DNA from: an uncultured cyanobacterium
GTDB taxonomy: Bacteria > Cyanobacteriota > Cyanobacteriia > Cyanobacteriales > Nostocaceae
Assembly (NCBI GenBank): GCA_963706595.1
Contig: OY970166.1
Coordinates: 5,056,001 to 5,120,000 of the forward strand
DNA length: 64,000 nucleotides
Direction of reading: 5' to 3'
Position numbers and translations under genes: made by a program. Positions 27,518 to 49,214 of the stretch are shown in pieces; position 1 is the stretch's first letter, and each line of letters starts with the position of its first letter. The notes under the pieces are model-generated. The model was not told where the DNA came from and searched no databases. It was given only the letters and a program-made list of their open reading frames with translations.

Positions 27518-27587
27518 AGTCAAAAGTCAAAAAGTCTATAAAATCAACTTTTTATTGATTTTAAATGGTTGTGTTATCTCTAAAATT

Positions 27588-28883: not shown

Positions 28884-28947
28884 GCGGATTCGAACCGCTG
28901 ACCTTCTCAATGCCATTGAGACGCGCTACCAACTGTGCTATAGCCCC
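28875..28947 (-). tRNA. tRNA-Ala(GGC)
   Basis: Reverse complement GGGGCTATAGCACAGTTGGTAGCGCGTCTCAATGGCATTGAGAAGGTCAGCGGTTCGAATCCGCTTAGCTCCA: cloverleaf, G3:U70, anticodon GGC. Confidence 0.97.
28904..28947. repeat. Left att core (44-bp direct repeat)
   Basis: TTCTCAATGCCATTGAGACGCGCTACCAACTGTGCTATAGCCCC, identical to 49171-49214. Confidence 0.97.
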
Positions 28948-29460
28948 ATGTGATGCCCTATAAAGCTCTCTCTATATAGCTTTCAGACTAATAGAGGACT
29001 TTCTCTAAAGTTATCCTGTAATTGATTATATGGCAGTTTATGTCAATTTGAAACAAGACTATTGTTAAGTTATGTAAAGAATGTTATTACTCATGGTTTT
29101 ATTTATAGCCTTATTCTATTGGGGTAAACTTGACATCCTAAAATCTCAAGCTTAAGATTGATGCAGGTTATAGTCCATCAAGTCAAGTTGAAAACGAAAG
29201 GTTAGTAAACTCTGGCTTACCCTACACCTGTGATGAAAACAAGTTTAGTAATCACAAGTGAATTGAATACCCAACCTACCTGGAGAGAAGTATACAGGTC
29301 AACTCTCCTATGGCTTTGTGCTGACTTTTGGGTGTTTTAGGGACTTATAATTTTCTTAATTATATTCAAATAAATCTTCTCACAATTGGTTAAGTGTATT
29401 TACTGATTGCATGGGGGTATCTGCCTGCTAGAGTTGCAAATAAACCAGGGTTAAAAACTT

Positions 29461-29793
29461 ATGCAAGTAGAAAAATCATATCCTCCTGTATGCAACGACT
29501 ATAAAGATATTGATCTTGAGGTAAAAACAGAATCAGCGACTTCAACTATCCAGTGTGCTTGGCTTCGTATTTATGGTGAAGAGTATGGTGAATACTACTA
29601 CTCCTGTGATGCCCATGCTGTAATTTACTACAGTGAGATAAATCGTATAAGACTTAATAATAAAGAAGTTAGCCCTGAAAATTATACAAGTTTTATTGAT
29701 GAAGACAAAGTAGCTTGGAAAATAATTACCCGTCAGGAATATAATAATATTCCATATCCACCTGGTTTGCAGTTTGCTTTAAAAAAACAATAA
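29461..29793 (+). CDS. Hypothetical protein (moron position)
   Basis: 110-aa ATG ORF convergent with the terminase; no recognised motif. Confidence 0.6.
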   Translation: MQVEKSYPPVCNDYKDIDLEVKTESATSTIQCAWLRIYGEEYGEYYYSCDAHAVIYYSEINRIRLNNKEVSPENYTSFIDEDKVAWKIITRQEYNNIPYPPGLQFALKKQ

Positions 29794-29889
29794 TACTTAT
29801 ACCAATTTAATGTGAAGTTGCATATAACTTAGAGGCTGAAACCCTTGTTAATTAAACAATCTTTATATGCAGCTTCATGAAAAATTACT

Positions 29890-31542
29890 CTAACCAGCCC
29901 TCAGATTTAATAACTCATTTACCACCTGCTCTTCAAACAGGTCATCACCATACAGACTAGTATTCCTCCTTCTCTTCCAAGCATAAGCAGCTAGAGCTAG
30001 TGCCATCACGCAGTCAGTAGCCAACCCTTTATCATCCAGTTTATAGAACCTCAGCTCAGTCTTAAGCTGTTTCAATCTATCCTGCTCATCATAAGGAATT
30101 ACCAGCTTTGCTTTCTCAACCACACCAGCAAGATTACTCAGCATTAAAGTTTTGTGATTGTGCTTTTGATTCTTACCTGGTTTCTTTGTGCTGTTGATAG
30201 GGATACATAACTCAGCATCAGCAGCAGGTAGCTCCTTCTCTATTGACTCCTTCAGGTACTGTCCTGAGAGCGCTGTGGCATCATAATATAAGTCACCAGG
30301 GAATTGGGCTAACCTACGTTTAATCCTTTCTATGACTCCATTCTGGTCAAACAGAGGTGTCTTGCTAATTCTTTCAAAAGCAACAATACGCAGCTCTCTG
30401 TCAATATACTGTAGTGTGATCAAAACTGTGCTGTCACCATTAGTAGAACCTGCCACATCCACACCTGTAAAGAACTGTGATGTTGGTCCACCTTTAGGCA
30501 GGTATGGATATTCCAAACTAGCACCATGCTCAGGCAAGCAGTGACCTGTAACTGGATCATCTTCTGGAAAGAAGCAAGTATGCCTTTCACCATTCTCAAC
30601 AGCTTTGTCTAAATAATTACCAGCAAAGAAAGTAGAACCATAGTTAGCAAACTTGCCATAGACTTCTTCTCTGACTTGAGCTTGAGTCATGTTAACCATG
30701 TTAGCTCTAATGGTTTCTTCAGGGTTACATGGGTTATCAAACTGACTAAACTCAGCAATAACTACTGAGGTATCTTTTTTCAGCCTGCGTTCTTTAAACT
30801 CTGCCCACATCTTTCTGAAGTAAATAGCCCCGCAACCAGCACTATCACCTTCCCCTTGTGGAGTTGATATAAAATACTTACGTCCACTAACTTCAGTACC
30901 TCTGACATTAAGTATCTTCATTCTTAAATGTTCCAAAGCATACTCACTGGCAGCCTCATCTAAGGTGCTTATATCCAAATAGAAACCCAGAATAAATCTA
31001 CCTCTTTGAACAGTAGCTTGAAACCAAATAATACTGTTAAAGCAAGTTTCTATAAAAGGTTGCTGTCCATCAGAGATATGCTTAATGAACCCTATGCTAG
31101 TCAGGAAGGGGCTATCATTAACTAGGTTGAGTATTTCATCCTTCACTAACTTTGCTTGCTTTAGAGAAGGCGCACAGTTAATTGACTGAAACCTTTTAGT
31201 GTGATCACCATAGAAAGGAGAGCTAGTAGGTCTTTTCCTATAGAATAAAAACCATAAGTGCATGAGTGCAGTAACAAAAGTTTTACCACTTCTACTGCCT
31301 GCTTTTAGCACTCCTTCTTGTGCATTCACAGCTTGCTTAAGCCATTGTCTCTGCTTAGGATGACCTTTTACTATTGCACCTGTTTCAGGATGTACACGTT
31401 CAATTTCACTGAGGTAATGGTTAACCTTTTCACCTAGAAAATACTTTACAAATAAGTTGGGATCATTAGCACCAGCAATATACTGATATCTTAATGTATC
31501 TGATTTAAGAATACCTTCTAAATCACTTGGTATAGTTAACAT
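29890..31542 (-). CDS. terL: Terminase large subunit
   Basis: HPKQ adenine motif, Walker A AGSRSGKT, Walker B TLDEAA, ISTPQG, FDNP, nuclease GVDVAG...DST and DCVMALALA. Confidence 0.92.
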   Translation of the reverse strand: MLTIPSDLEGILKSDTLRYQYIAGANDPNLFVKYFLGEKVNHYLSEIERVHPETGAIVKGHPKQRQWLKQAVNAQEGVLKAGSRSGKTFVTALMHLWFLFYRKRPTSSPFYGDHTKRFQSINCAPSLKQAKLVKDEILNLVNDSPFLTSIGFIKHISDGQQPFIETCFNSIIWFQATVQRGRFILGFYLDISTLDEAASEYALEHLRMKILNVRGTEVSGRKYFISTPQGEGDSAGCGAIYFRKMWAEFKERRLKKDTSVVIAEFSQFDNPCNPEETIRANMVNMTQAQVREEVYGKFANYGSTFFAGNYLDKAVENGERHTCFFPEDDPVTGHCLPEHGASLEYPYLPKGGPTSQFFTGVDVAGSTNGDSTVLITLQYIDRELRIVAFERISKTPLFDQNGVIERIKRRLAQFPGDLYYDATALSGQYLKESIEKELPAADAELCIPINSTKKPGKNQKHNHKTLMLSNLAGVVEKAKLVIPYDEQDRLKQLKTELRFYKLDDKGLATDCVMALALAAYAWKRRRNTSLYGDDLFEEQVVNELLNLRAG

Positions 31543-32279
31543 TAGTCATCATTCTCCAACTCATATTCAATTTCTACATCTGCTGATTTAAGAGCAAGTA
31601 AGTCATCAACTCTAGCTTCAGGGTTAGCACTTAAGTATCCTTTCACTAAGTCCTGTATAAGTTCTTTGGGGTCTACACTTAGCTGAGTATAAAGGGCTTG
31701 AAGGGTAACTTCATTTTCATTCTTATCTCTCAAATCTTTTTTAGTTTTCAAGGTAGCATTGATTTGAGCTTGATGAATCTGAATAACTTTAGATAAATCA
31801 GTGATAGCTTTACTAAGACCATTGATATTATTAGTAATTACCTCTACTTCTCTAGCAGAAGAATCAGTTGCAGAAGTAGATAATTGTACTGCTGCTTCAT
31901 ACCTATCCATTAATTCTGTTTGATGATCAATGAGGCGACTTAGCATAGCATCAGATAACATAATGCTATTGTCTAGTAAAGTTTCTTTAGAGTAATCTGT
32001 AGCTAATAATTCTTTTCTTTCTTTAGCAGATAGTGATTTAATTGCTTTCATATCATTTTGTTTAACTAGTTTAGAGTGTAGACCATGAGTGATTCTAGCC
32101 TTAGCTGCTTTACCCCCATGAGATGCACAACATTGGTAACCAATCATTACTTTATTTTTACATTGGGTGCCATCTCTTTTAATAACAGGACACCTTTGAG
32201 GTTCAGGTCTTCTACCTGACTTATACCTATGTTTGTAAACTGCACTGTCTACATAGCTAGGTTTATTTTCTTGAGACAT
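31542..32279 (-). CDS. Probable terminase small subunit (HGGxSTG-like Zn motif)
   Basis: CPVIKRDGTQCKN...CCASHGG...THGLHSK; stop overlaps the terL start. Confidence 0.7.
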   Translation of the reverse strand: MSQENKPSYVDSAVYKHRYKSGRRPEPQRCPVIKRDGTQCKNKVMIGYQCCASHGGKAAKARITHGLHSKLVKQNDMKAIKSLSAKERKELLATDYSKETLLDNSIMLSDAMLSRLIDHQTELMDRYEAAVQLSTSATDSSAREVEVITNNINGLSKAITDLSKVIQIHQAQINATLKTKKDLRDKNENEVTLQALYTQLSVDPKELIQDLVKGYLSANPEARVDDLLALKSADVEIEYELENDD

Positions 32280-32360
32280 TTATATAGATATATTTTATAA
32301 AAGTACCAGCAGACATAATCTACTGATACTTTATTTTAGCTGATATTAAGTGTGTAATAA

Positions 32361-32741
32361 TTATTTAGAAACTAGAGTTTTAATAATTTTCACATCAGTT
32401 TCAATTTCAGATAACTTATTAATGATTTCAGCTTTATTACTTCTAGATTCAAAATCTATTTGAGTAAGAAGTTTAGTAGTATCTTTAGTAGTTTCAGAAA
32501 AGGTTTTAACTGCCTCAGTCTGAGAAACTAAATAATGTTTAACAGATGACCATACTTCAACATTGATAAATTTAAAAAAGTATCTTGAACAGAAAGCAGT
32601 AACTCCACCAACTGTAACTAAGGTAAGTAGTATTGCTAAAGGAGCGCTAGTAATTGTGTCCTTAGTAGTAAAGTAAGCATCTCTCTGAATGTCAACAGGA
32701 ACTGATACCTGTGCTTGTTGTTTATTAAAATTATTATCCAT
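32361..32741 (-). CDS. Single-TM coiled-coil protein, possible holin
   Basis: One TM segment; located between fibre and terminase. Confidence 0.4.
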   Translation of the reverse strand: MDNNFNKQQAQVSVPVDIQRDAYFTTKDTITSAPLAILLTLVTVGGVTAFCSRYFFKFINVEVWSSVKHYLVSQTEAVKTFSETTKDTTKLLTQIDFESRSNKAEIINKLSEIETDVKIIKTLVSK

Positions 32742-32755
32742 CTTTAAACCTATTA

Positions 32756-34309
32756 TTAAGGTGCAATCTCCATAAGTGTTACAGAAGAATATCCTTGGTT
32801 ATAAGAATTAACTAATTTGTTTATCCAAATATTTGTAATACTAGAAGCACCAAGAAAAATACCATATTCAACAAATGAAGTAGTACCAGGACTATCTAAA
32901 ATATCATAAGTAATACTATTTGAGGCAATAGTAGCATCAATAGGAGTGAATCTAGTTGTTTGTAAAGTGCTACTAGTTGGGCTCATTCTTCTTAATTCCA
33001 CAATTATAACTGTACCACTTTGAACACTAAGCCCACCTAAGGAAAGTCTTATTAATATTTTGCTATTAACATTAGAAGGTTGGATAATTGTTTGTGGAAA
33101 ACCTAAGTACCCAGGGGTAGTTCCAGCTTGAGCTTGAATTTCATTACCACTACCTACTGTTACTACTTGTAATACCTTACCTCCACCACCACCTCCACTA
33201 GCAGCCGCTTGAGGTTCCCACCTGCTATTAGCAGAACTGTAAACTAATACTTGACCATCAGTAGGAGCAGCAGTATGTACATTGACTCCTCTAAGTTTGT
33301 CTGCATTCCATTGTGCAGTACCATTACCAACTTGAGCAGCAGTAACAGAGTGAGGGTTATTAGTTGCAGTTACGTGACCAGTAACAGTTGTATTTGAAGA
33401 TGCACTAGTCAATCTACCATCAGCACTAACAGTTATGTTAGCAGCGTTATAAGCTCCAGCAGTGACTCCTGAATTTCCTATTGAGGGATTAGGATATGTG
33501 CCAGTTAATGAACCTCCTGCTGATCCTGTAGGGTTTCTAGAATCAGTTAATCTAGAGTCTGAAGTATTAACTTTACCAGCTAAGAAAGTGTCTAGTTGTA
33601 GAGTGGTATAAATTTCAGAAACATCAGCTTTATCATTTAGCAAAGCATCTGTTTCTGTTTTCAAATAGTAATCAGTTAAATCAACAGAACCGCCAGCCCC
33701 AGTCTCATCAACTGCATATTCTAAAGATTGACTAGTGGAGTTATATTTTAAAACTTTACCATCCCCTATAGCAGAGTCATCTACAGCTACACCTTTAATG
33801 CGATCGCTATTCCATTGTGCAGTATCTTTACCTACCTGTGTAGCTGTTACTGAGTGAGGATTAGAAGTGCTAGCAATGTGAGCAGAAGTAGTAGACTCAT
33901 TTGCTTTACCAGTTAATAAGTTATCTACCTCAGTTTTAAGATAGTAAACAGTTAAGTCTGGACTATCAGGAATTAAGTTATCTACTTCAGTTTTAGTGTA
34001 GTAACTGGTTAAATTAGAAATATCAACTTTATCAGTTAATAAAGCATCAACTTCAGTTTGTGAATAATAAGGAATCTCTTCTGAACCTGAACCAACACTT
34101 CCTTGAGCAAGTAAGTCCCAATCTAAAGCAGTCAAGCTGGGTTCTTCACTTGTAGTCTTGTTAGCTCTATAAGATGAGCCATCATAGAAGACTCCTTGGT
34201 TGCGTCTGTATATCCTGCTAGTGACCCAATCTCCTACCCATACTACAGAAATACCATTGACAGTAGGGATAGGGCTAGAAGAAGTAGCTGGGTTAATTTC
34301 TATTGCCAT
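32756..34309 (-). CDS. Tail fibre / receptor-binding protein
   Basis: YY.KTEVD.LL repeats, duplicated [32 protein letters not shown]...WEP, poly-Gly hinge, GKVLQVV C-terminal domain. Confidence 0.8.
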
Positions 34310-34310
34310 A

Positions 34311-35693: not shown

Positions 35694-35696
35694 AAA

Positions 35697-36584
35697 TTAT
35701 GTTTTTAAAATACTATTTATAGAAAGAATTGGTTTGTAACCAACGTTAGTAAAATCAAGAGCTAAAATGGCTTGTATTGTATTGTTTAAGAAATCAGGCT
35801 TTGCTAATATTTTAAGCTGACTTGATAGTATAAAACTGTTCAACTCATTAAAAGCAGCTATTTGTTTTGATTTTATTTTTTGTAAGACAATCTTCTTTTC
35901 TAAAAAAACTTCATTATCTTTACCTTGTATTGCACGTTCACTTTGTTCTTCAATAGTAAAGAAGTTTGTAGGTATCTTTCTTTGCACATAAACTTCTTTG
36001 TAGAAGCCATCAGTAAATATCTCTGGGGCTAAAAGTCCTGCTGTATAAGCATATTCAAATTGCTTAGTTTGGGAACTAGAAAAGTCACTAATCTTTTTAG
36101 TTTTAGTAGGTTTCTGAAATGTTAATTCTATATTGCCTACAAAGAACCTTCTATTTTGTATGATTTCTGTATCCCCTATTCTATAAGGGTTGAACCTTTG
36201 TTCTAGTAACCAGTCTCTATTATAAATAAATCTTAACTCTTCCCTTTCTTCTGAAGTAGGTGAATAGTCTATACCTTTAATATTATTAGGTAGAGGTACA
36301 AAAGGTTGATTTCTTAAATAGGTAGCTAATGAATCCCAAAAGGAAGGATCTTCAGTTAACTTAGTTAATAGATTGCTAATATAATTAACAACTAAAGCCT
36401 GTCTATAATTGTACCCTGCTATACCCAAGTAAGCTAAATTATTTCTAAATAATAAGAAGGCAGCTTCTCTTCTTTGAAAGATAGGAGATAGTTCATCTAC
36501 CTCCCCAAACATTATATTAAATAGCTCATCAGATACTTCTTCATCTAAAATGATATTTAAAAAGCCATCATTTAAAGTAGTCAT
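35697..36584 (-). CDS. Putative virion protein
   Basis: 295 aa, 3-bp spacing within the late operon. Confidence 0.5.
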   Translation of the reverse strand: MTTLNDGFLNIILDEEVSDELFNIMFGEVDELSPIFQRREAAFLLFRNNLAYLGIAGYNYRQALVVNYISNLLTKLTEDPSFWDSLATYLRNQPFVPLPNNIKGIDYSPTSEEREELRFIYNRDWLLEQRFNPYRIGDTEIIQNRRFFVGNIELTFQKPTKTKKISDFSSSQTKQFEYAYTAGLLAPEIFTDGFYKEVYVQRKIPTNFFTIEEQSERAIQGKDNEVFLEKKIVLQKIKSKQIAAFNELNSFILSSQLKILAKPDFLNNTIQAILALDFTNVGYKPILSINSILKT

Positions 36585-36587
36585 ATT

Positions 36588-37157
36588 TCAAATAAAGTTA
36601 AAATCAAAAGTCCCACCCACAGAAGAAATATTTATATCTGTAGCTTGTACACTGGATAATTGAATTACTAATACTCCTTCTTCTAAAATACTATTCTGTG
36701 CTACTTTAAATAACTGCCTATTGTTTTTCAAATCAAGGAAGGGTATATCAAATCTTAATTCATAAGAGTTAAGCTGGTTACCATCAGGCACTTGAGGATA
36801 CCAATAGTAAGGTATAGGGGTAATGAGTAGAACGTCAGCAGGGTTAGTATTTAATACTCCAGTAGGAAGAGTAGGTAATTCTATTCCTGGACTAATCTGA
36901 GGTCTTTTAATACTCTCTAGTAAGTATCCAGGTAAAGCCCAAGCCCTTTGAGTTTTCTCAACAATAAAAGGTCCTGAGTCTCCATTTTGTACTTCTCTAA
37001 ATCTAACTGCATAATCATCAATAAAATAATTAACTGATGATTTTATATTGCCTGAATAGTCAACTGCTAATATTCCACTAAACTGAGAGACTAAATGAGA
37101 TAATGAATTTCTTCTAGCCATTAACTCATAATGCTCAATTCCTGTAATAAGACTCAT
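36588..37157 (-). CDS. Putative virion protein
   Basis: 189 aa, ATGA overlap with the upstream gene. Confidence 0.5.
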   Translation of the reverse strand: MSLITGIEHYELMARRNSLSHLVSQFSGILAVDYSGNIKSSVNYFIDDYAVRFREVQNGDSGPFIVEKTQRAWALPGYLLESIKRPQISPGIELPTLPTGVLNTNPADVLLITPIPYYWYPQVPDGNQLNSYELRFDIPFLDLKNNRQLFKVAQNSILEEGVLVIQLSSVQATDINISSVGGTFDFNFI

Positions 37158-39418
37158 AATGTTATACCTGATATGTCTACAAGTTGTTGAAGTACAGCTA
37201 TATCTACATCTACTCTGCTAGCTCCACCTCCTGATAAGAACCACAGTTGTCCAGCACCAGTATTAGTTTCTATACTAAAGGCACCAGATGAGTTTATTCC
37301 ATAAGTACCAATACCAGCAGATACAGGTCTACCCCTACTATCTAGAGGAACAAAAGTAGTTAAGCTATCTACATTTAAAATAGAGTTTGTATAGTTTTGA
37401 TAATTTCTAACATTGAGGTTTCTTCCTTCCCACTTCCAAAACTTTAGACAAGTGCTTTTACAGTAATCTATTAACTCTACTAAAAAGTTACTAATAGCTA
37501 ATTCATAATAATGCTGTATAGGACTTATACCTCTAATAGCCGCAGCTTGTTCAATTGAAGGCAAGTCACTAATAGCAGGCAAAGAAATAAGTTTGTTAGT
37601 TAAATAATCTTCTGTGTAATTAAAATCTAAAGGAACATCTCTTACAGTTGAACTGCTAAGTTTTATTTTACTTTCTAATAAAATAGAACTGAAAGGTAAT
37701 GTATAAGGCATCAGCTTCCACTTGTCAACATTAGTATAAGTATTAGGGATTGACTGATATACATCTTTAGCTATTTCATCTGAGAAGCTTACCCCACCAA
37801 TTAGAAAGTCTTCTGGTGAATTATTTGTCCAGTAGCTATCAGAGAAGTTTGGAACATAAGGACCAGTTGTATTACTAGATAAATTAGTAATTGTTTTTCT
37901 GGTGGTTCCGTTTACTACCACATAGCTTACTAAATAAGTAGTTGGGTTATTTGCCTGATTAAAGTTAGAACGTATTTCTAAATTAGTAATTTGATTAAAG
38001 CTTAACTTTTCACAAAATAAGCTACCACCTAAATTAACAGGACTGGCAGGATTAGTTATATCAAGTAGCTCTCCAATTAATTTACCTGGAAATGGATTAC
38101 CAGTAACTTTAAATAAAGCATTGTTATTATATGCAGGAGGAACAAAATGTCTTCCACCAGCATTAGGAGTAATAACATTACCTGTAGGATTAAAAGCAGT
38201 AAAGTTATAAATAGGTCTAGAATTTGATGCACTTACTCCCCCATGAGTAACACGAATCCTGGCAGGAAAAGGTACACCATTTCTAGTTAAAGTTAATAAT
38301 AATTCTCCATTAGGTATTTGTAATCCTTTTGTAATAGGAGAAAAATCTACTTGATAGGCAGCATTACCTGGGGTGTTACTATTGCTTGAAGGGATAAATG
38401 AGTCAACTATACAATCTTGAGTAAAATAAGAACCAGCACTTTGAATATTATCAACATTAGCAATACTATTAGTAGGTATGATTCCTCTAAATAAAGTACC
38501 TCTGTTTAGTGCGTTTATAGAAGTTGAAAAAAGTTGATAGTAAACATTAGGGTTGTCAAATTGTGCTTGAGTGGGTGTGCCACTAAAATATTTTCTAAAG
38601 TAGCTAATAGTTACTGGATCACCAAAGAACTGTGGTTGATCATATCTATGAGTAGAAGTAAAGTTTGTACCATCATAACTAGCTCTTAAGGTAAAGTTAT
38701 TATAATCAAACCAGTTAGCAACAAGAGGTGTAGTAGGTACTGGAATCTTTACATTAGTAATATCTACATTAGTTTTAAAATCTAATTGGCAGGTTATAGG
38801 TCCACCTGACATTCTAGCTATTGCTCCATAAGGTGCACTTAAACGGTTTGTAGCTAAATCAATTTCATTTCTTATATCAGGGAAATAATCAAAAACATCT
38901 ACACCTGTTAAATCATTTAAGCCAAATACTATTTCTTCTAACTGTTCACCATTTCTAAAAGAAGGAATGCCTGTAGTAAATGCTCCTGTTAATTCTCTAT
39001 TTGATATACTTGCAGTACCAGAACTGGATGTAAAGGTTACTGAATAATCATCAGGTGTAATACTTTTTATAGAGGTGGTAGTTCCACTAGCAAAGTTAAA
39101 ATAAGGTCTTTTAACCTGCCTAATAAACCCAAAGTAAGTTCTGTATGCAGCAGCCCATAGTCTCATTAAACCAAAAGGATTAATGTTATTCCTAACTAAT
39201 CCACCAGAAACCCACATATCAATTAAGCTATTAAAGTTGCTTGGGTTACCAGCTTGAGAAGATAAGCCTACAGAACATCCTGGTATGAATTGTGTGTTAG
39301 GAGGAGGATCACCAGGTCTACTTGTTAAGGCATTACCTTGAGTTAGTTCAAAGGTGCTGCTATTAGGATATCTCTTAATGAATTGAATAACTTTATTCTT
39401 ATGTAGCGGATTTGCCAT
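37154..39418 (-). CDS. Large N/T/P/S-rich putative virion (tail/spike) protein
   Basis: 754 aa directly after the capsid gene; beta-rich composition. Confidence 0.55.
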   Translation of the reverse strand: MANPLHKNKVIQFIKRYPNSSTFELTQGNALTSRPGDPPPNTQFIPGCSVGLSSQAGNPSNFNSLIDMWVSGGLVRNNINPFGLMRLWAAAYRTYFGFIRQVKRPYFNFASGTTTSIKSITPDDYSVTFTSSSGTASISNRELTGAFTTGIPSFRNGEQLEEIVFGLNDLTGVDVFDYFPDIRNEIDLATNRLSAPYGAIARMSGGPITCQLDFKTNVDITNVKIPVPTTPLVANWFDYNNFTLRASYDGTNFTSTHRYDQPQFFGDPVTISYFRKYFSGTPTQAQFDNPNVYYQLFSTSINALNRGTLFRGIIPTNSIANVDNIQSAGSYFTQDCIVDSFIPSSNSNTPGNAAYQVDFSPITKGLQIPNGELLLTLTRNGVPFPARIRVTHGGVSASNSRPIYNFTAFNPTGNVITPNAGGRHFVPPAYNNNALFKVTGNPFPGKLIGELLDITNPASPVNLGGSLFCEKLSFNQITNLEIRSNFNQANNPTTYLVSYVVVNGTTRKTITNLSSNTTGPYVPNFSDSYWTNNSPEDFLIGGVSFSDEIAKDVYQSIPNTYTNVDKWKLMPYTLPFSSILLESKIKLSSSTVRDVPLDFNYTEDYLTNKLISLPAISDLPSIEQAAAIRGISPIQHYYELAISNFLVELIDYCKSTCLKFWKWEGRNLNVRNYQNYTNSILNVDSLTTFVPLDSRGRPVSAGIGTYGINSSGAFSIETNTGAGQLWFLSGGGASRVDVDIAVLQQLVDISGITL

Positions 39419-39428
39419 AATACTTTAA

Positions 39429-39446
39429 AGGGGGATTATACCCCCT
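39429..39446 (-). terminator. Hairpin after the capsid gene (attenuator/terminator)
   Basis: AGGGGG-TATAAT-CCCCCT then TT on the minus strand, 6 bp after the stop. Confidence 0.6.
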
Positions 39447-39452
39447 CACTAA

Positions 39453-40526: not shown

Positions 40527-40551
40527 ATATTTTTATTTATGTATTTATTAA

Positions 40552-40917
40552 TTAAATAGAGATTTTAATTTTGTTAGCAGTCAGAGCAACACCAACTTTA
40601 TTGGTTCCTGTACCTGCAACAATACCAGCAGCACCAGCAAAGACAGCAGTGCCAGGTGTGAGAGCTAAGGAAGTACCTTTGTTTTCAACAATGCAATCTT
40701 GCTCTACAGCTAACATAGTGCCTGCTTTACGGGCATAACGTGCTACCCCAACAGGGATAGTAGAGGCAGTTGCTAAGATAGCTAAACCAGCAGAGTTAAT
40801 GGAAACTACTGAACCTTCAGGAATGTCTACTGCTGTAACTAAATTAACAATAGAACCCTCTAAATGAGAAGAGGCAATGAATCTGTATTTGACAACGTTG
40901 TAAGCTACATTTAACAT
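40552..40917 (-). CDS. Capsid cement/decoration protein
   Basis: Small Ala/Gly-rich: IPEGSVV...PVGVA...ALTPGTAVF...VGVAL. Confidence 0.65.
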   Translation of the reverse strand: MLNVAYNVVKYRFIASSHLEGSIVNLVTAVDIPEGSVVSINSAGLAILATASTIPVGVARYARKAGTMLAVEQDCIVENKGTSLALTPGTAVFAGAAGIVAGTGTNKVGVALTANKIKISI

Positions 40918-40943
40918 ATTTTTAAATTATAAGTAATTGATAT

Positions 40944-41336
40944 TTAATACCCACGCCAAGCTTTAACTTTGCGTTCTTCTTTAGTAGAAGTTTGTTGTAG
41001 TGGTACTCCAGGTTTGGTAACCACATCTTTAGTACCTGATGCTTTAGCTAATGCACCTTGTAAAGCAGCTTGAATCTTAGGTACTAAGTTTTCTTTTAAG
41101 TCTGTTTCTAGTGATAACTGTTTAGCTAAATAGTCTGCTTCTACTTCTTCTTGAGAAGAACCAGATGCTTTAATACCTAGCAGTTTAGCCATCCTTTGAA
41201 AGTCAGGTTTAGTTTTAGCTAATGCAGCTTCATAATCAATCTCAGGTGCATCAGGTGTAATAGCTTCTAAACCTAAATCTAGTTCACTTGTTTCTTCAAT
41301 GGGAGTTTGTTGTACTTCACTCATCTTCAGTTTCAA
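40944..41336 (-). CDS. Putative scaffolding protein
   Basis: Acidic helical protein with basic C-terminus between portal and capsid genes. Confidence 0.5.
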   Translation of the reverse strand: MKLKMSEVQQTPIEETSELDLGLEAITPDAPEIDYEAALAKTKPDFQRMAKLLGIKASGSSQEEVEADYLAKQLSLETDLKENLVPKIQAALQGALAKASGTKDVVTKPGVPLQQTSTKEERKVKAWRGY

Positions 41337-42745
41337 TATTATTTTCTATAGGGTCAATACTATCTTCTACAGGTTGAATAACTTTAGTGCCAGGGTTATT
41401 AATTGCCTTATCTGTAAAGATATTACCATCATCAGCATTAGCAGCATCCTTACTATCAACTAGGGCAGCACTGTATTGAATGTTAAGTCCTTTTTCTGCA
41501 TCTAGCTGTTCAAGTTCTTTGTCAGCTTCTGCTTCAGTTAGACCTTCAACTTGAATCAAGTATCTCTTTCTAGAAATAAGTTTATTCTTGACAGCTTCTA
41601 TTTGTAAACGCTTATCTTCTAAGTTTTCAGGCATCATGTCAGGCAGATCTACTCTAAAAGCTATGTCAATACCTAACTCTGAGAAAATAGTCTTAAGGGC
41701 TGAAAGAAGATAACTAGCTCTACTTAATGTAGCACGTTGTAGTGGCTCATACAACACACTAAGAGAAGATGAACTACTGGCTGATCTAGCATTCTGTAGT
41801 TCTAAGACCATGACTCCACAAAGACTATAAATATCTTGCAGAATGATTAGTCTCTGTCTTTCTAGATAAGGTGAATCTTGAGGTTGTAAATAACCAATGC
41901 GAGGAGTGATACCAAGTTCAGCCGCAGCATTACTAATAGGCAGGTGTAGAATACTAGCACCATCAGAAGTAAATGCTGTTTGAAAAGCTGATGAACCTGT
42001 AGCAGACTCTATACTCTCAAGAGGAGATGAATTAGAATCTACCAATAAATGTAGGTGCAGAAGTTCCAATTGTATAAACCTGTGGCTTGTGATGCTGTCC
42101 ATTTGTGTGGATGCGTGACCGGACTGCACAATACTCCAACTGTAAATGAATTAACCTTTCAATTGGAGATTGTGACTCTCTTCCAATGAGAGAATTTACA
42201 ACTCTTACAATAGGTATATGATCACCTAATTCTACTGGTTCAGCATTGCCTACTTTTTGAAAGTATCTGTATGCAGGTAAGTCAAATACATTTAACTCTG
42301 GGGATTCATTGGTGAGAGTTAAGTAATGCTCTACTCTTACATCAGTGTATGCATTTCTAACAGGGTCATAGACTTCTCTTTTCTCCCGCAGGTACACTAC
42401 TTGCATTGGGTTATTAGGGTCAACCTTAATTTCCTCAATGTCAAGCGTATGAATATGACGCAGCTTACCTTGAGAAACCTCAATGAAAGATTCACCAAAT
42501 ACAGGTACTTCCAAATAGACATCACTCAGGATTCTATAAAGATTAATCTCATTTAGTTTGTCATCTAATTGTTCTTGTTGCTCAGAATTGATAGCTAAGA
42601 ATTTAAGTTTTTTTTGATAGCCATCTCCCAATAAAAATCCTTTGATTTGCTCTACAACTAACTGAATTAGCTTGACTGGTAACTCTTGATTAGTAGCAGG
42701 GTTGATACCTTTGTAAGCATCAAACAATTCTTGTTTAGAACTCAT
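41317..42745 (-). CDS. Portal protein (SPP1-like), one extra base near 42048
   Basis: VEQIKGFLLG, IPIVRVVN..GRESQSPIE.LI.LQ, SSSSLSVLYEPL, ISRKRYL...AEADKELEQL; two ORFs join if one T of ACA-TTT-A is removed (~475 aa). Confidence 0.75.
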
Positions 42746-43280
42746 GTATATAAAGTTTCACTTATGTTTATTATATATCTTAATTATACAAGTAGAAAGT
42801 AGGATAAATAGGTTTTTGTATAGGGATACGTGTATGGTTTAAGGTATAGTGGCTACAGAGGGCTGGGTGAGGGGCATTCTACCCCCAGGGGGAGGTTTTA
42901 ATAAAGGTTACTCACCTCATACAACATACCCCTATTAGTCTACTTATTAAATAGGTATCAGTGTTCCTTTAAAGAAGTGCTACATTACTTTTATAATAAG
43001 TATAATGACTACTGGCTTAACAGATAGTAGTGAGTAAGTCTTACTATGTAGTGGTGTACTCCCTAAGTCTACTCAGTACAGTAGTATATGTATAGTATCA
43101 TATATACTTAGTTGTCTATTAGTTAAGCTTGACACTTCAGTAAGGATGAGTAGTATTCACTATATATAATATGTAATAGTTATCTTACAATCATCCATTA
43201 GAGTAATAGTTAGTAACTGTTCTTATATGCTTAAGTAAGTATATAGTATAGTTGTACTAACTGTATAGAGTACATACATA

Positions 43281-43426
43281 GTGTGTGTATATGTCTACTA
43301 CTATTGCTATGTGCATAGTGTGTACTGTTACTGTAGGTACTACTGTTGGTGTGTGTATATGTCTACTACTATTGCTATGTGCATAGTGTGTACTGTTACT
43401 GTAGGTACTACTGTTGGTGTGTGTAT
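43281..43426. repeat. Perfect 68-bp tandem duplication plus 10 bp
   Basis: Units start at 43281, 43349 and 43417 (GTGTGTGTATATGTCTACTACT...). Confidence 0.92.
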
Positions 43427-43534
43427 GTGTATACTGTGTGTGTGTACCAGTGGTAGTAGCTGACTGTAGTAGCTGTGTGTGATGTTACTTACATAAGATT
43501 GTTTATTATTATTTATTATTATTTATTATTTGTT

Positions 43535-43834
43535 ATGGATTTAGATGTAGAGTTCCGCAATGGATGGCGACTACACAGTGCAGTGGTGGCTAGGTGGTTG
43601 GGTGTACCCCATACCCAGGTGAGGGCTACCATAGCTAACCACTACAAGGCTATAGATACAGTAGGCTATGGTCTATGGGAGTCAGGGTCAGACTACTGGT
43701 TAGAGCAATGTCATATAGACCTACTCATCTGCTACCTATTCAAAGGGGATATGCTCACCAGTCTTATGGCTACTGTCTCAGCAGAGTTTACTAACTTTAA
43801 GAAGCAGCATCTTAAATCAGGTGGCTTAGTATAA
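43535..43834 (+). CDS. Rha-like phage regulatory protein
   Basis: LHSAVVARWLGVPHTQVRATI...YWLEQCHIDLL parallels the Rha domain of 44561-45331. Confidence 0.6.
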   Translation: MDLDVEFRNGWRLHSAVVARWLGVPHTQVRATIANHYKAIDTVGYGLWESGSDYWLEQCHIDLLICYLFKGDMLTSLMATVSAEFTNFKKQHLKSGGLV

Positions 43835-43884
43835 GTGTACTATGCGTGATAGCTTTGCTTTGATATATGAGTAATGCTACAAAG

Positions 43885-44065
43885 TTTGCTGACTATTTAT
43901 AAGCTGTCTGACTATTACCTAAGCAATTAGCTGACTATTCATAAGCTGTCTGACTATTAGTTTGCTCTATGGTTTGCTGACAATTAGCTGGCTTTAGTAA
44001 GCTGCCTTGAGTAAACTGTCTAACCATTAGCTGCTGTCCAATAAACTGCCTCAAGTAAATTGTCA
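43885..44065. repeat. Degenerate ~14-bp periodic repeat array
   Basis: TAA(G/A)CTG / TTAGCTG cores at 43900, 43927, 43942, 43984, 43998, 44012, 44027, 44042, 44056; 30-bp near-perfect pair at 43888 and 43930. Confidence 0.75.
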
Positions 44066-44256
44066 GATAAAAGTTTAGTAATTACAGTTTGCTTTGATTC
44101 TCCTTTTAGAGATTATCTATATCTATCTATTACTTGTTCTATCTCTATTAGTAAAGTATATGGTTTTGTAAGTGGTGGCGTTTTTAAAATGTATTGTAAA
44201 AGAATGCTGATAAAAGTCCTCTTATTTTTACTGCCCAATTAATACAGGTATTTATA

Positions 44257-44285
44257 TTGACTAGACTCTTAAAGAATGTTATTAT
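44257..44285 (+). promoter_or_regulatory. Sigma70-type promoter of the early operon
   Basis: TTGACT-N17-TATTAT with extended TG, 35 bp before the RHH ATG. Confidence 0.7.
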
Positions 44286-44319
44286 TAGTAGTATAAAGAA
44301 ATTCAATAAATACACAAAT

Positions 44320-44478
44320 ATGAAACTAGATAAACTTACTTCAATCAGACTTTTTAAAGGTGACAATGACCAGCTTCAAAAGATAGCTGATGCCAAAGGT
44401 TTAGACAGAGCTGACATTATCAGAGAAGCAGTTAAGCTCTATCTGCAAGGTGAAAGAGATCAGACTTTTAGCTTTTAG
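44320..44478 (+). CDS. Ribbon-helix-helix (CopG-like) regulator
   Basis: TSIRL...DQLQKIADAKGLDRADIIREAVKLYL. Confidence 0.85.
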   Translation: MKLDKLTSIRLFKGDNDQLQKIADAKGLDRADIIREAVKLYLQGERDQTFSF

Positions 44479-44560
44479 TAAATCCCTTAGTGTAGAGGAC
44501 TAACCTTTACACTCCATTCATTAAAATTATACAAATCATATATATTAAACTCACAAAACT

Positions 44561-45331
44561 ATGTCTAACTTACAAATTACAGTACAAAACATTAACTCAG
44601 AATTGGTTGTTGACTCTAGATTGATTGCTTCTGAGTTAGGGGTTCTACATAAAAATCTTAAAGAGCTAATTAAAACTTATTACGCTGACTTTTATCAACT
44701 TGGTCAGGTCGCGTTTGAAACGCAGGCTGGAGATATTAGATATGCTGAAACTTTTTATTACTTAAATGAAGACCAGTGTTATTTACTACTGACTTACTGT
44801 AAAAATACTCCTCAAGCTAGACAAGCTAAACTTAATTTAGTTAAAGCTTACAAAGCAGCTAGAAATACTGTTGATTTACCTAATAATTTAATTGATGCAG
44901 TTGAGGCTTATCTTATTGCTTTAAAAGAGAAGCAGGCTTTAGCATTGGTGGCTGCTGAGGCTCAAGAGAAGGTAAATGAGTTAACTCCTAAAGCTCAAGA
45001 TTGGGATGCTCTCTGTGACCGTGAAGGGCTGATGAATGTAGAAACTGTAGCTAAAGTTCTTTGTGTAAAAGGGTTAGGTAGAAATAATTTATTTAGATTT
45101 TTACGTGATAAGAGTATTCTAAATTTAAGCAATAACCCTTATCAAAACTTTGTAGATACAGGTTACTTTGTAATCAGAATTAAGTACAACCAATACACAC
45201 TGAAAGATGATTCTGTTACCTTAGTTACACCAAAAGGTTTTAGTTTCATTAAGCGTACACTTGAGAAAGCAGGTTATAGTATTCCTACTAATCCTACTCC
45301 TCCAGGTGCAGCAGCTCTTAAGGCAGCATAG
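44561..45331 (+). CDS. Rha-domain / KilA-C (ANT) antirepressor
   Basis: VDSRLIASELGVLHKN...LNEDQ...KLNLVKAY; PKAQDWD...VAKVL...GRNNLFRFLRD...PYQ...TLVTPKG. Confidence 0.88.
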   Translation: MSNLQITVQNINSELVVDSRLIASELGVLHKNLKELIKTYYADFYQLGQVAFETQAGDIRYAETFYYLNEDQCYLLLTYCKNTPQARQAKLNLVKAYKAARNTVDLPNNLIDAVEAYLIALKEKQALALVAAEAQEKVNELTPKAQDWDALCDREGLMNVETVAKVLCVKGLGRNNLFRFLRDKSILNLSNNPYQNFVDTGYFVIRIKYNQYTLKDDSVTLVTPKGFSFIKRTLEKAGYSIPTNPTPPGAAALKAA

Positions 45332-45463
45332 TTAAAACAAAGAGAGGGGTAACCACTCCCCTCTCACACACAAAACATATTCTAAATTCTTACAAATAAC
45401 TATATTCTTAATTACATTATACTACATACACTACATATTATTACAGAATTATTAAAACTAAAT

Positions 45464-47018
45464 ATGAATAACGCTTATATTATTAAAACCCTTAGAAGTC
45501 CTGAATCAGTTAAGACCTACTTAGATACCTTGCTAAAAGACTTTACTAAATCTGATTATCAATTCTTTGTTCATGTTTACAGTAGCACTCTAGTATCTTT
45601 TATACAGAGAGAATCTGGTTGGGTTCCTATTAGTGCAGAATTAATTAGAAAGCAGTGGGGTAAAACAAAAATTCAGCTTGAAAAGATGAAAGAAGCTGGT
45701 CTACTAGAAATTAAGGTACTGGATCAACTTGAGCTTGCTGATGGGTTATTCCTAGAGCAAACCTATTCTAGGAAAGATGGTCTATGTCGGTGTTATAGAA
45801 CTCCTCTAGAAATAATGGAACAAATAGAGTACCATTCTCCTGATTCTTCTGAGGAATATACCACCTGCCAATATTACAATTTAATGACTGGTAAAAAAAT
45901 GAATGAGCAGGTGAGATACCTTAAAAAAGACCACAATAATAATTATCATTCTGATTTGCTTTTGGGAGCTATGGATACAATCAAAAAATGTATAGTTAAT
46001 TTAAGTGCTTTGGAGGCACATGTAGAAGCTCTAAAAGATGCGTTGAATCTTTGGTACTGAAAAAGACTTAAGGGCTTTTATTGTGGATAATTCTTGCCTT
46101 AAACGGATTAGAGAAAATCACACCCCATTAGAAAATGGTTTGGCTGAGTATCAGGTAATCTTTGGTGACCCTCAAATGTCTGGTAGATTAACTGAGCTAG
46201 GTAGTTGTATGCAGGGCTGCTCTAGAGAGATGAAAAAGCAGGGGTTCAGTGATATCCCTGGTATTAAAAACTATGATCTAAAGTCTAGTCAAGTATACGG
46301 TTTAATTCAATGGTTTGAAAAAGCTAAGATTGATACTTCTTGGTTGCATGAATACTTAGCTCAAGATAAGCAGGTATATGCTGATGCAGTAGGTATCAGT
46401 AAAGACAGATGGAAGCAGTGCTTTATGGCACTAATTATGGGAGGTTACTTACAAGAAAATGTAAAAGCTAAGAACTTTGAAGTGGTTAAGGTTGTTAAAA
46501 AGATAAGAGGACAATTGATAGAGCAGGAAGACTACCCTAATGTAGCTCTCATCAGGGCTTTATGTCAGGAAGCTAAAGGGAATCCAGATTTAGCTCTGAC
46601 ATATTACACTAGGTTTGCTCAAGTGGTAGCTCCCTTGAAGGCTTGTATTGATGCTTGGCAAGAATGGATGCTAACAAAGTATATCCCAGATGAATCTTTT
46701 TACGCTCATAGCCAGCAGTTACTTGTAAATAAGACAGGTAAAACTTTTAACTTAACAGAGTATCAGACTAAGGGGGAGTGGGATAAAAAGAAAGTTAACA
46801 AAATGAAAAGAAGGCTCTCAGCTTTCCTTCTGCAAGGCACAGAGGCAGCTTATATACATCACCTAACTGTAATCAGTAAGGACTTTGGGTACAGAGTCCT
46901 AAGTAATCAGCATGATGGTTTGGTAACAATTGGAGAGATACCTAGAGAAGCAATGGATATAGCTAAACGCAACTCAGGTCTAAAGTATGCTTACCTAGAG
47001 GAGAAGGCTTTTGTTTAA
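45464..47018 (+). CDS. Divergent Pol A / T7-RNAP-fold polymerase (TV-Pol-like), one extra base near 46050
   Basis: SGRL, motif A NYDLKSSQ, motif B KQCFMALIMG, LQGTEA, motif C QHDG; two ORFs join by removing one base (NL-GTEKDLRAFIVDNS), ~517 aa. Confidence 0.65.
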
Positions 47019-47393
47019 CCCATAGAGGTTGATACACCAGTAGACTGAATCAAAGGGGAGGGGTCATGAAGACTGCTCTCTTTTTGACTTGGGGGGCTGG
47101 AATCCTGATTTTGCAAAATTTTAGATATAAACAGGGGGGGTCAGGAAAGAGAGGGAACCAGGAGAACAGGAGACAGGAAGGGGGTATCAGGCAGGGAAGC
47201 AGAGTGAAGAAGACTCATATAAGGTATGTATGGCATAGTCTGTACTACACTATAGCTATAACCCTTACCCAGTAAAGATTACAGGCTATAAACTCCATGA
47301 GTTACGTAGAAGTAAACCCATAATAATAGTATTAAAAAGTACCTAATTTAATATAAGTAGGTACTCTATAATATACCCAAGTATATCTAAGCG

Positions 47394-47591
47394 TTAAATG
47401 TTGCTTTGTGTAGGGGAATAATTTGGTTTACTATAATACACTTTCTCTAAAGCTGAAGGAGAATGGTATCTGGGAGGGTTATGTTTATAGTTTCCTCTTA
47501 AACAAGATTTTACGTTTCCTATTAACAAAAAACAAAGAAGAGTAAGGATAGCATTAACTATTGGTCCCCCTTCATCACTGTTATTTGACAT
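47394..47591 (-). CDS. Small TM hypothetical protein
   Basis: 65 aa, ATG start, one hydrophobic stretch. Confidence 0.4.
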   Translation of the reverse strand: MSNNSDEGGPIVNAILTLLCFLLIGNVKSCLRGNYKHNPPRYHSPSALEKVYYSKPNYSPTQSNI

Positions 47592-47740
47592 ACATTTATT
47601 GTTTTGAGTTGAAATTTAAGCACCTAAACCTTAATGTAAGATATTCCCTAAACGCTAGATAGAGAAAAATTACTGAAATGTATCTTCATCTAAGCTTCAT
47701 GAGCCAACTACAAGATTAGCTGACTCATTAAGTTAATTTT

Positions 47741-47962
47741 TTAATCCATTCCAATTAGATAAAGTCTTATGTAAAGTTCATTTAACCTTGCATAAATCTT
47801 AGAGAAATCAGCGTTTAGGACTTTCCTGCTCAGTTCTTCTAGATAGGGTTGATTATACTCAAAACCCTTATCACATTCCTTTAAAACATGAATAGTATAA
47901 TTCAACTCTTCAACAGAAATCTCTAATGCTTCAACTATTTCTTTTACTTTTTGGTTGTGCAT
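47741..47962 (-). CDS. Small hypothetical protein downstream of the integrase
   Basis: 73-aa helical ORF co-oriented with int. Confidence 0.55.
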   Translation of the reverse strand: MHNQKVKEIVEALEISVEELNYTIHVLKECDKGFEYNQPYLEELSRKVLNADFSKIYARLNELYIRLYLIGMD

Positions 47963-48015
47963 GATAGATAAATATCCTAAACTAAATGGGTTTTCTGGAA
48001 TGATTATTTGATTGC

Positions 48016-49092
48016 TTACAATTCAGGTAACTTAGGTTTTTTAATACTGCCTAGATAATGTCTAAAGATTATCTCAGGGCTGTTACCAACCAAGTCTGCC
48101 ACCTCATGAGGAGGAATACCACTGCTAATACAATGGCTAATAAAGGTTGACCTACAAACATAGAGTGGACGGTGAGGAATACCTAAGTTTTCCAAAGTTA
48201 TCTTCCAACACCGTTGACCTATATTGTGATCATCAAGTGGTAGACCTTTAGGTGAAGTAAAAATCAACTCTTGTTTATTCTTTGCCTCAGACCTAACCTT
48301 TAGTATTTGGTACACCTTGCTATTCATAGGTACAATCCTATAAACATTTGTTTTGGTGGTCTTCCTGACTCTTTTAGAGCTTCTACCTTTAACTTTATTC
48401 AGAGTTTCATAGACATGAATTTCCCTTTTCTGTAGGTCAATATCCTGCCACCTCAAACCAATTGCTTCACTAAGGCGTAACCCAGTGTTAAGTAACAGTA
48501 GTATAAAATCATGATAGTGATTGTAAAAAGGATCTCTTTGTAGAGAACTCAGAATCATATCCACTTCATTAGTGGTCAGTGGTTTAGCTCTAGGTTTATC
48601 TGGAACCTTGACCTGAAAGCTACCAAACAAATCTTTCCTAAGCACCTGCAAAATAGCTAGGTATCTTTTCTTACTATTCTTTTTAATACCCCTACCATCA
48701 AGCCAGTCTAGAAACTCCTTAGCATCCACACTGGTTTTGATTTGCTTCTTATATCCTTGCAGGAGTTTGAGTAGGGATTGGTCAGCAGAATTGTAGTTAT
48801 CAGCAATCCGTAGCTGAAGCATTTCAATTAGTGGAGGAAACCTTGATTCAGGAGGCTTGCTACCACCATTGCCACCATAAGTAATGCCCTGTAACCAGAG
48901 CTTATACTTGTTGAGTGTAGGATCAAATTGACCTATCAAACAATCCTGGTATATTAACTTACCACAGTAATCTAGCCTAGCTCTCTCTGAGGTATCTTCC
49001 CACGCACCCCAAGTTAGACTGTACCTTTCATCCTGATAAGTCCATCTGAGAATGCAAGAATTACCATTCTTCTGAACCTTTATTTGCCGCAC
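48016..49092 (-). CDS. int: Tyrosine integrase with N-terminal arm-binding domain
   Basis: TGLRLSEAIGLRWQDID, KTTKT, YVCRSTF, VGNS...HY; 78 bp from the right att. Confidence 0.95.
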   Translation of the reverse strand: MRQIKVQKNGNSCILRWTYQDERYSLTWGAWEDTSERARLDYCGKLIYQDCLIGQFDPTLNKYKLWLQGITYGGNGGSKPPESRFPPLIEMLQLRIADNYNSADQSLLKLLQGYKKQIKTSVDAKEFLDWLDGRGIKKNSKKRYLAILQVLRKDLFGSFQVKVPDKPRAKPLTTNEVDMILSSLQRDPFYNHYHDFILLLLNTGLRLSEAIGLRWQDIDLQKREIHVYETLNKVKGRSSKRVRKTTKTNVYRIVPMNSKVYQILKVRSEAKNKQELIFTSPKGLPLDDHNIGQRCWKITLENLGIPHRPLYVCRSTFISHCISSGIPPHEVADLVGNSPEIIFRHYLGSIKKPKLPEL

Positions 49093-49170
49093 TATCTTAT
49101 GTCACCTTATGGCAGAACATAGGATAGCCTTAGAAATTAGTGTGCTTATATAGCTGTTTCTGGGGGTTAG

Positions 49171-49214
49171 TTCTCAATGCCATTGAGACGCGCTACCAAC
49201 TGTGCTATAGCCCC
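49171..49214. repeat. Right att core: displaced 5' half of tRNA-Ala
   Basis: Identical to 28904-28947; lacks the T arm and 3' acceptor strand. Confidence 0.97.

Follow-up and report, generated by a model that had tools for sequence, protein, structure and literature searches.

How does a virus-like element deliver its DNA when it encodes a head and fibres and no recognisable tail? This question is raised by an element of 20,311 bp, which lies at positions 28904-49214 of a 64,000-nucleotide stretch of DNA (hereafter the window; contig OY970166.1) from an uncultured cyanobacterium of the family Nostocaceae, whose genome is designated G000. The element encodes a head, a predicted head-closing ring and attachment fibres, and probably either borrows the tails of other phages or enters cells by another route. 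It apparently belongs to an undescribed lineage with a hybrid neck, either a capsid-forming satellite or a minimal temperate phage. The reading favoured here, with roughly an even chance of being right, is that the family consists of independently evolved capsid-forming satellites of heterocyst-forming cyanobacteria, which are about 20 kb long, integrate at tRNA genes, carry host-type fibres of their own and borrow their tails. A preliminary description, made from the letters alone, had offered a small short-tailed temperate phage or a helper-dependent satellite; both options are still live, with the satellite preferred and the phage as its main rival.

The element and its relatives

The 44-bp repeats at the two ends of the element correspond to the 5' part of a tRNA-Ala(GGC) gene, and its GC content of 0.355 lies below the roughly 0.41-0.46 of most segments on either side. 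In the right arm are a tyrosine integrase, a replication gene (Rep), a Rha-KilAC gene and a ribbon-helix-helix (RHH) regulator. The left arm is a single minus-strand operon, which runs from portal, scaffold, cement and capsid through four initially unassigned proteins of 754, 189, 295 and 460 amino acids (aa; the last is designated Y) to fibre, transmembrane protein, terS and terL. The repeats, the integrase and this order had been read correctly beforehand, as is evident from the direct repeats, the PF00589 match and the PHROG and Pfam matches (Table 1). The set of head and packaging genes is complete. The capsid profile matches the capsids of PDB entries 8saj and 8giu; no meaningful match came from PDB sequence searches with profiles of the portal, Rep, the 754-aa protein and Y, and the scaffold has no family match. 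The capsid clade is isolated: five full-length clusters match at E<1e-99, and a wide score gap separates them from the next full-length match, at 1e-23.

The capsid gene was detected in 9 of 300 genomes of the host family, and a DNA search gave full-strength matches in 13 of 388; the capsid family did not turn up among 373 and 355 genomes sampled from other families of the order and the phylum. The named carriers, cultured ones among them, include Nostoc, Nodularia, Cuspidothrix, Gloeotrichia and Dolichospermum. Nine copies are bounded by att repeats. The seven with both early and packaging genes measure 19.9-21.7 kb and sit at tRNA-Ala, -Pro or -Met; this count leaves out G028, G140, G188, G245, G356 and G218b, which are cut by contig ends or showed no repeat. 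The constant size speaks against a remnant of a 40+ kb phage and for the compact integrated element of filamentous cyanobacteria that had been proposed. Among the seven, the G018 copy is interrupted by insertions and has a truncated neck module, and genes are split in the G245 copy. Two shorter att-bounded copies, of 16.8 and 17.1 kb, are deletion derivatives. They lie in G363 (C67:8371-25157; L099/L100; tRNA-Val), where the early module is lost and the integrase runs into the second half of the portal, and in G332 (C48; L103/L104; tRNA-Ala), where no terS or terL was seen.

The genes are under purifying selection, as the ratio of nonsynonymous to synonymous substitution rates (dN/dS) is 0.11-0.56 across 17 pairwise comparisons (all <0.6). 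Two copies in G218 (C1 near 1.34 Mb and 3.68 Mb; L013-L016) share an 11.3-kb late module at 99.9% identity and differ in integrase, tRNA site and Rep, which suggests that the element moved recently. In 5 of 10 congeners, the tRNA-Ala site was found empty.

Protein searches of 50,697 phage records returned the capsid only, at 22-26% identity to actinophages, and no match for terL, the portal or the 754-aa protein; the suggestion that the element does not cluster with a described phage genus is thus upheld. Scans of IMG/VR with the major capsid protein (MCP), an MCP alignment, terL and a Y alignment gave no relative, and scans of JGI metagenomes gave none and then one 1.7-kb fragment; these blanks are weak because the scans were for exact patterns. 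In one seawater run (word share 0.15), a related copy with the long neck module is present in pieces, none of which spans the element. Among the rows shown, no piece bridges the two frameshifts of the window copy, and no attP joint was seen. Contigs with distant capsid genes are 17.9-20.8 kb long, lengths that would be compatible with unit-length genomes. The 154 candidate CRISPR spacers of G000, some from non-CRISPR repeats, have no match to the elements over >20 nt. No description of the family was found in the full-text literature, a search that most subscription papers and supplements lie outside, and prophage catalogues may list copies.

The neck proteins and the search for a tail

Two neck modules alternate in the family. 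The short one consists of X (213-223 aa) and Y (335-346 aa), and the long one, carried by the window copy, of the 754-, 189- and 295-aa proteins and a larger Y (457-460 aa). Across the capsid tree, which is poorly resolved, this alternation needs four changes, and the tree does not show which neck came first. The folds of Y, as an adaptor, and of X and its 189-aa homologue, as a head-closure protein or stopper, are predicted from structural models. The model of X (predicted local distance difference test, pLDDT, 62; predicted template-modelling score, pTM, 0.61) matches T4 gp14 best (Z 8.6, root mean square deviation 3.9 A, 128 residues), followed by the stoppers of lambda (Z 6.9), R4C and Pam3 (6.4) and SPP1 gp16 (5.5), and its top named BFVD matches are neck proteins. 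It has the layout of gp14, in which a helix at the N-terminus is followed by a barrel and a C-terminal arm; in T4 this arm is disordered until the tail binds and then locks onto the tail terminator (PMC12929587). Weak matches to the N-terminal barrels of tail knobs were also obtained (C1, Z 5.4; phi29, 4.5-4.6), with no nozzle core among the structural matches. Stoppers of the Hc1/Hc2 type are known from the necks of sipho- and myoviruses, where the tail terminator docks, while podoviruses use Hc3 or a phi29-type collar (PMC4362835). The T7-like podovirus of the preliminary description is weakened by this, since a conserved neck gene models as the stopper of long-tailed phages and not as the T7/P22 nozzle. 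Its argument from a T7-like gene order fails to discriminate, because proteobacterial phage-inducible chromosomal islands that form capsids (cf-PICIs) likewise place terS-terL behind the genes for head and neck (10.1101/2022.09.08.507074).

The most variable of the core genes is X, at a mean identity of 61%, where six others reach 74-88%; its dN/dS is 0.47-0.56, against 0.11-0.25 for most core genes. The dN/dS of the 295-aa protein is raised too (0.44). An Atlas feature match of this protein to CRISPR Csx8/Cas8 (score 0.90) was rejected, with low recognition and only 4 of 10 matches to the same family. The 754-aa protein has no PDB or phage match in sequence searches, and its gene is absent from short-type copies. 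A weak likeness (probability 25% over 17 columns) links its N-terminal peptide to the conserved peptide at the C-terminus of X, as if the arm of X might have moved onto a large appendage.

The predicted adaptor Y is composed of a helical bundle (~1-55 and 175-245), an immunoglobulin-like insert (58-170, long type only), a long conserved helix (57 residues, 270-326) and, following it, a C-terminal jelly roll (355-460). In VIA-align comparisons, the bundle reaches Z 10.8 to the KHP30 and Moo19 tail chains and Z 9-10.8 to podovirus adaptors; a helical bundle is common to all adaptor types (PMC4362835). The insert resembles side domains of sheaths and of the T7 nozzle (Z 10-13; 12.9 to the A-1(L) sheath domain), and the jelly roll matches XepA/YomS (Z 12). 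Foldseek matches of the whole of Y to Cry toxins and FliD, long and of low template-modelling (TM) score, were discarded as artefacts of a multidomain model.

No tail gene was detectable. By Pfam, PHROG and prophage comparison, no nozzle, ejection, terminator, tube or tape-measure gene was recognised in the element. None of the terminator, sheath, tube, tape-measure or baseplate genes of a contractile-tailed Nostoc prophage matched any of the nine att-bounded copies, as had been anticipated for the tape measure and sheath; a control prophage matched over the part compared. The fibres and the holin-like gene are the only genes of this Nostoc prophage that match those copies. In G018 and G170, the protein in the holin-like slot is 45-63% identical to a gene after the fibres of this prophage. 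In short-type copies, X, Y and fibres are all that comes after the capsid gene, and the smallest late operon (G170) consists of only 10 open reading frames (ORFs) at 98% coding density, with no spare ORF. Such an operon has no place for ejection proteins, which podoviruses that infect Gram-negative hosts, cyanobacteria included, need or commonly encode (PMC8954989); in long-type copies, the 295- and 754-aa proteins may yet be of the ejection or, for the latter, the nozzle kind. The missing endolysin is not diagnostic, because the fully tailed Nostoc prophage also shows no stand-alone endolysin among 20 proteins scanned, only a peptidase domain in the baseplate hub.

Contractile-tailed prophages lie in G361:C31 (L107:1738-20000, L108:1-18231) and G155:C1 (L109:1221-18073), and their capsid gene occurs in 19 of 388 family genomes; this prophage family is a candidate donor of modules or tails. 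Genes of 194 and 375 aa after terL in G140 (L022:11489-13218) are homologous to terminal genes of the G361 prophage, a further shared module. Resident contractile injection systems were considered as tail donors and rejected: sheath genes were found in 4 of 5 carriers tested and none in G050, and the G000 locus looks partial, with a sheath gene (PF04984) and few neighbours and no baseplate or spike genes nearby (C1:1219180-1228641, outside the window). In G134, the interval from tRNA-Ala(GGC) to hisF, the same site as the element's, contains a 36-kb block whose genes, on visual inspection of the ORF starts, are like those of contractile injection systems (C1:3673770-3709897; L097/L098).

Proposed tail borrowing and the competing explanations

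Under the satellite reading, the element would excise from its tRNA site, start replication with its own initiator, a Rep of family A polymerase (PolA) fold, and package its DNA by TerS/TerL into its own small head. A ring of the Y adaptor and a ring of the gp14-type stopper (X or the 189-aa protein) would then close the head. Neck-mounted fibres would bind the host surface, and the DNA would be delivered through a tail taken from a long-tailed phage and docked on the stopper, whose fast evolution may track the tail donors. The adaptors and connectors of cf-PICIs also vary and set the choice of tail (10.1101/2025.02.11.637232).

Several observations weigh against this. The element is known here from its genes alone, with no sign of excision or particles. 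The model of X is moderate, and its Z of 8.6 is barely above the level that common arrangements reach; the raised dN/dS of the 295-aa protein may mean that the fast evolution of X reflects host binding instead. The best matches of Y are adaptors and rings of short-tailed phages (KHP30, Moo19, B2, GP4, crAss001, DEV, A4), T4 gp13 is not among the matches listed, and the nearly invariant helix and jelly-roll extension has no role in a simple tail pirate. In eight of the nine att-bounded copies, the fibres are 36-74% identical to the 780-aa fibre of the tailed Nostoc prophage. A helper is not evident either: G000 has one terminase gene, the element's own, and no PF10145 tape-measure match, and the tested tailed-prophage family is present in only 1 of 13 other carriers and has neck proteins without similarity to X or Y.

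The podoviral-looking adaptor, the conserved extension of Y, the prophage-like fibres and the lack of an evident helper in most carriers keep an autonomous phage live. Such a minimal temperate phage, its tail a stub or missing, is a substantial possibility that falls clearly short of an even chance. In it, Y would act as the adaptor and a 12-helix tube or collar, X (or the 189/754/295-aa set) as a knob-like tip and the fibres in adsorption, and the DNA would cross the envelope via the Y/X channel or a host channel or pilus. The weak matches of X to the C1 and phi29 barrels agree with this, as do the element's own replication and holin-like genes; with the long module, large proteins would be mounted at the neck, and the alternation of the two modules is like that of host-range modules. 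PaV-LD, whose host is a filamentous cyanobacterium, is reported to be tail-less, though annotated with a tape measure (PMC10343443). On the other side, there is a Gram-negative envelope to cross with no recognisable nozzle, ejection protein or muralytic enzyme, and in short-type copies with only X, Y and fibres beyond the capsid gene; the stopper fold is typical of long-tailed necks, and the exact-pattern scans of IMG/VR with capsid, terL or Y queries gave no relative. The more specific proposal, an undescribed HK97-type temperate lineage of about 20 kb, with a hybrid neck and no tail or ejection proteins, that infects Gram-negative filamentous cyanobacteria unaided, is slightly less probable still. 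Tail borrowing by a satellite is still preferred, and two further explanations have to be set beside it.

A hitch-hiker, whose particle would use its fibres to hold on to a helper virion and enter together with it, has a precedent in MiniFlayer, which has 17 kb, its own capsid and short fibres that bind the helper's neck (PMC10690885). MiniFlayer is without primase and integrase genes, whereas the present family has an integrase and Rep, and the likeness of the fibres to those of the tailed prophage points to host binding; this explanation is the least probable of those considered. Only marginally better placed, and still quite improbable, is a decayed or deleted prophage or a host-domesticated relic with no transferable particle. 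The frameshifted portal and Rep of the window copy and the damaged copies in G363, G332, G018 and G245 would fit decay. They are countered by the constant size and gene order of seven att-bounded copies at three tRNA types, by dN/dS values below 0.6 in every comparison, by the G218 pair and by the empty tRNA-Ala sites. Both frameshifted genes are intact single ORFs in relatives, and both halves of each are under purifying selection. Host genes of the same assembly are frameshifted as well (4 of 86 orthologues against 0 of 90 reciprocally, in 12 stretches, 240 kb, of a congener). Such frameshifts are scattered over the G000 assembly, for example at C1:5110359-5111766, in line with its 94% completeness for a single contig. 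The probability of two chance breaks in ~5,700 codons is P ~0.09-0.14, so that assembly error and real decay are inseparable here. Background assembly error can explain the rate, and the window copy has either been inactivated recently or is intact, its two breaks being errors of assembly.

Within the scope of the literature searches, the satellite and the autonomous reading are each new for cyanobacteria. If tails are borrowed, tail piracy would extend to bloom-forming and symbiotic Nostocales, via a lineage that keeps its own fibres, unlike the cf-PICI model. The element would then be a candidate gene-transfer vehicle in these hosts, of a class that satellite finders excluding tail and holin genes would reject. 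If it is autonomous, a relative of tailed phages would need no more than adaptor, stopper and fibres to infect a Gram-negative host, and the minimum parts list for DNA delivery becomes testable; an autonomous lineage with a hybrid neck would represent a minimal delivery architecture outside the four known neck types. The named cultured carriers make induction, electron microscopy and tail mixing feasible.

Early region, coordinates and known systems

The earlier observation that no helicase or primase could be recognised holds in part: no helicase ORF was recognised, and the replication gene, with its family A polymerase fold, had been overlooked. Intact Rep is a single ORF of 517 aa in relatives, its predicted (Atlas) structure matches DNA_pol_A (PF00476) clusters with a TM score of ~0.5, and its dN/dS is 0.16-0.25. 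Two conserved acidic motifs, YDLKSSQ and HDG, are kept in relatives, and we take them to correspond to polymerase motifs A and C. The Rep slot is swappable, and other copies hold proteins of 497/500, 475/482 or 683/698 aa, the last of which match replication-origin-binding PHROGs. PolA-like proteins of Rep's size in mobile elements have been proposed as primase-polymerases (PMC2579912), and by analogy Rep is probably a primase-polymerase that works with host enzymes.

Two exact 68-nt repeats and arrays of 14-19-nt repeats are present in the control region at 43281-43430 and 43885-43990. Other 14-30-nt arrays occupy this position in some relatives; these arrays are possibly origin iterons that change with Rep. 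Among the 23 ORFs, no Pfam or PHROG match to an AlpA-type regulator, a head protease or an HNH nuclease was found, by searches that may miss remote homologues. Elsewhere in G000, outside the window, three further related integrases (C1 near 4669300, 4295600 and 3270200) lie beside tRNA-Phe, tRNA-Cys and tRNA-Arg/Thr, in small islands where no capsid genes were seen. To the left of the element, host-side DNA (25388-28883) carries a WD40-repeat gene with 126-nt repeats and then an ATPase-like gene.

Table 1. Features of the element, in window coordinates.
Feature	Position	Strand	Basis or remark
tRNA-Ala(GGC), integration target, intact at the element's left end	28874-28948	-	ARAGORN
att core, left copy, 44 bp	28904-28947		100% direct repeat
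Accessory ORF, 110 aa	29461-29793	+	clusters with ORFs in 4 relatives
Large terminase (terL), 550 aa	29890-31542	-	phrog_2, E 1e-18; 84-93% identical in relatives; dN/dS 0.11
Probable small terminase (terS), 245 aa	31542-32279	-	position before terL; HGGxSTG domain, E 2e-4, below cut-off; 72-88% identical in relatives
Putative holin-like protein, single transmembrane segment, 126 aa	32361-32741	-	Kyte-Doolittle peak 2.03 at residue 33
Fibre, mosaic receptor-binding protein, 517 aa	32756-34309	-	PHROG tail-fibre matches
Y, predicted head-tail adaptor, 460 aa	34311-35693	-	AlphaFold model, pLDDT 78.6, pTM 0.40
295-aa protein of the long neck module	35697-36584	-	family only in long-type copies
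Predicted head-closure (stopper) protein, 189 aa, homologue of 219-aa X	36588-37157	-	hhalign probability 95% to X
754-aa protein, probable neck appendage	37154-39418	-	conserved ends, variable middle
Major capsid protein, 357 aa	39453-40526	-	phrog_3990, E 2e-21
Cement/decoration protein, 121 aa	40552-40917	-	PF09956, E 5e-4, below cut-off; 75-91% identical in relatives
Probable scaffold, 126 aa	40944-41324	-	position and conservation
Portal, split by frameshift near 42045	41317-42745	-	phrog_533, E 4e-5; single 450-482-aa ORF in relatives
Divergent control region, candidate origin or packaging site	42746-44256		68-nt, 19-nt and 14-nt tandem repeats
99-aa ORF in control region	43535-43834	+	clusters with ORFs in 5 other copies
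RHH (CopG/Arc-like) regulator	44257-44478	+	PF01402 over cut-off
Rha-KilAC antirepressor	44561-45331	+	PF09669, PF03374
Rep, family A polymerase fold, split by frameshift near 46050	45464-47018	+	
73-aa ORF beside integrase	47741-47962	-	clusters with ORFs in 4 other copies
Tyrosine integrase, 358 aa	48016-49092	-	PF00589, E 4e-22
att core, right copy, 44 bp	49171-49214		100% direct repeat

Among known systems, the cf-PICIs (EcCIEDL933, KpCIDSM30104) share with the element an integrase, a replication gene of their own, capsid, portal and, by predicted fold in the element, adaptor and connector/stopper; in both, terS-terL stand last, and no tail tube or tape measure is described (10.1101/2022.09.08.507074, 10.1101/2025.02.11.637232, PMC10085698). 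This likeness is one of description and gene order, without direct sequence comparison. The seven sized copies exceed the 10-18 kb of cf-PICIs (10.1101/2025.02.11.637232), which are defined as having no tail or holin genes, whereas the element carries fibre genes and a holin-like gene. It differs further in having scaffold and cement genes, an RHH regulator and Rha-Ant in place of AlpA, no protease or HNH match, an adaptor of 335-460 aa with extra domains, a Rep of PolA fold or of one of three other families, and a cyanobacterial host. It is thus not a cf-PICI by definition, because of the fibres, the holin-like gene, the larger size and the lack of an AlpA, protease or HNH match. The Streptomyces satellites MulchRoom and MiniFlayer (15-17 kb) also encode a head and a terminase themselves; long tails are seen in MulchRoom, which integrates, and fibres in MiniFlayer (PMC10690885). 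They differ in their hosts and in having no primase homologues, and they were not returned in the phage protein searches.

The T4-type neck (Virfam type 2), made of gp13 and gp14 with a collar of fibritin, is matched by X, modelled as gp14, and in T4 it is the adaptor that carries the neck fibres (PMC12929587). Unlike T4, the element has no gp15, sheath or tube, its stopper gene precedes the adaptor gene, and its capsid has no T4-like match. T7/P22/N4-like podoviruses, cyanopodophage A4 included, resemble it in the adaptor bundle (Z 9-10.8; the Ad3 type of the Virfam type 3 neck in T7/P22-like phages), late gene order and fibres. No nozzle, needle or ejection protein was recognised in the element, and its genome is roughly half the usual size of theirs. 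Sipho- and myovirus prophages (Virfam types 1 and 2) have a tail terminator, tube, tape measure and baseplate, and the element shows none of these. The TV-Pol/CCPol primase-polymerases also present a PolA-fold protein of 400-600 aa in a mobile element, in a slot of mutually displacing replication genes (PMC2579912, PMC7581432); the likeness is by fold, the activity of Rep is presumptive, and no D5 or other helicase gene was recognised adjacent to it. The contractile-tailed prophages of G361 and G155 differ in their full sheath, tube, tape-measure and baseplate set and in capsid, portal and neck genes without a match to the element. What they have in common with it is a Rep of PolA fold (52-65%), Rha, segments of the fibre and the holin-like gene, and the G155 prophage carries a related integrase beside the same hisF gene as the element.

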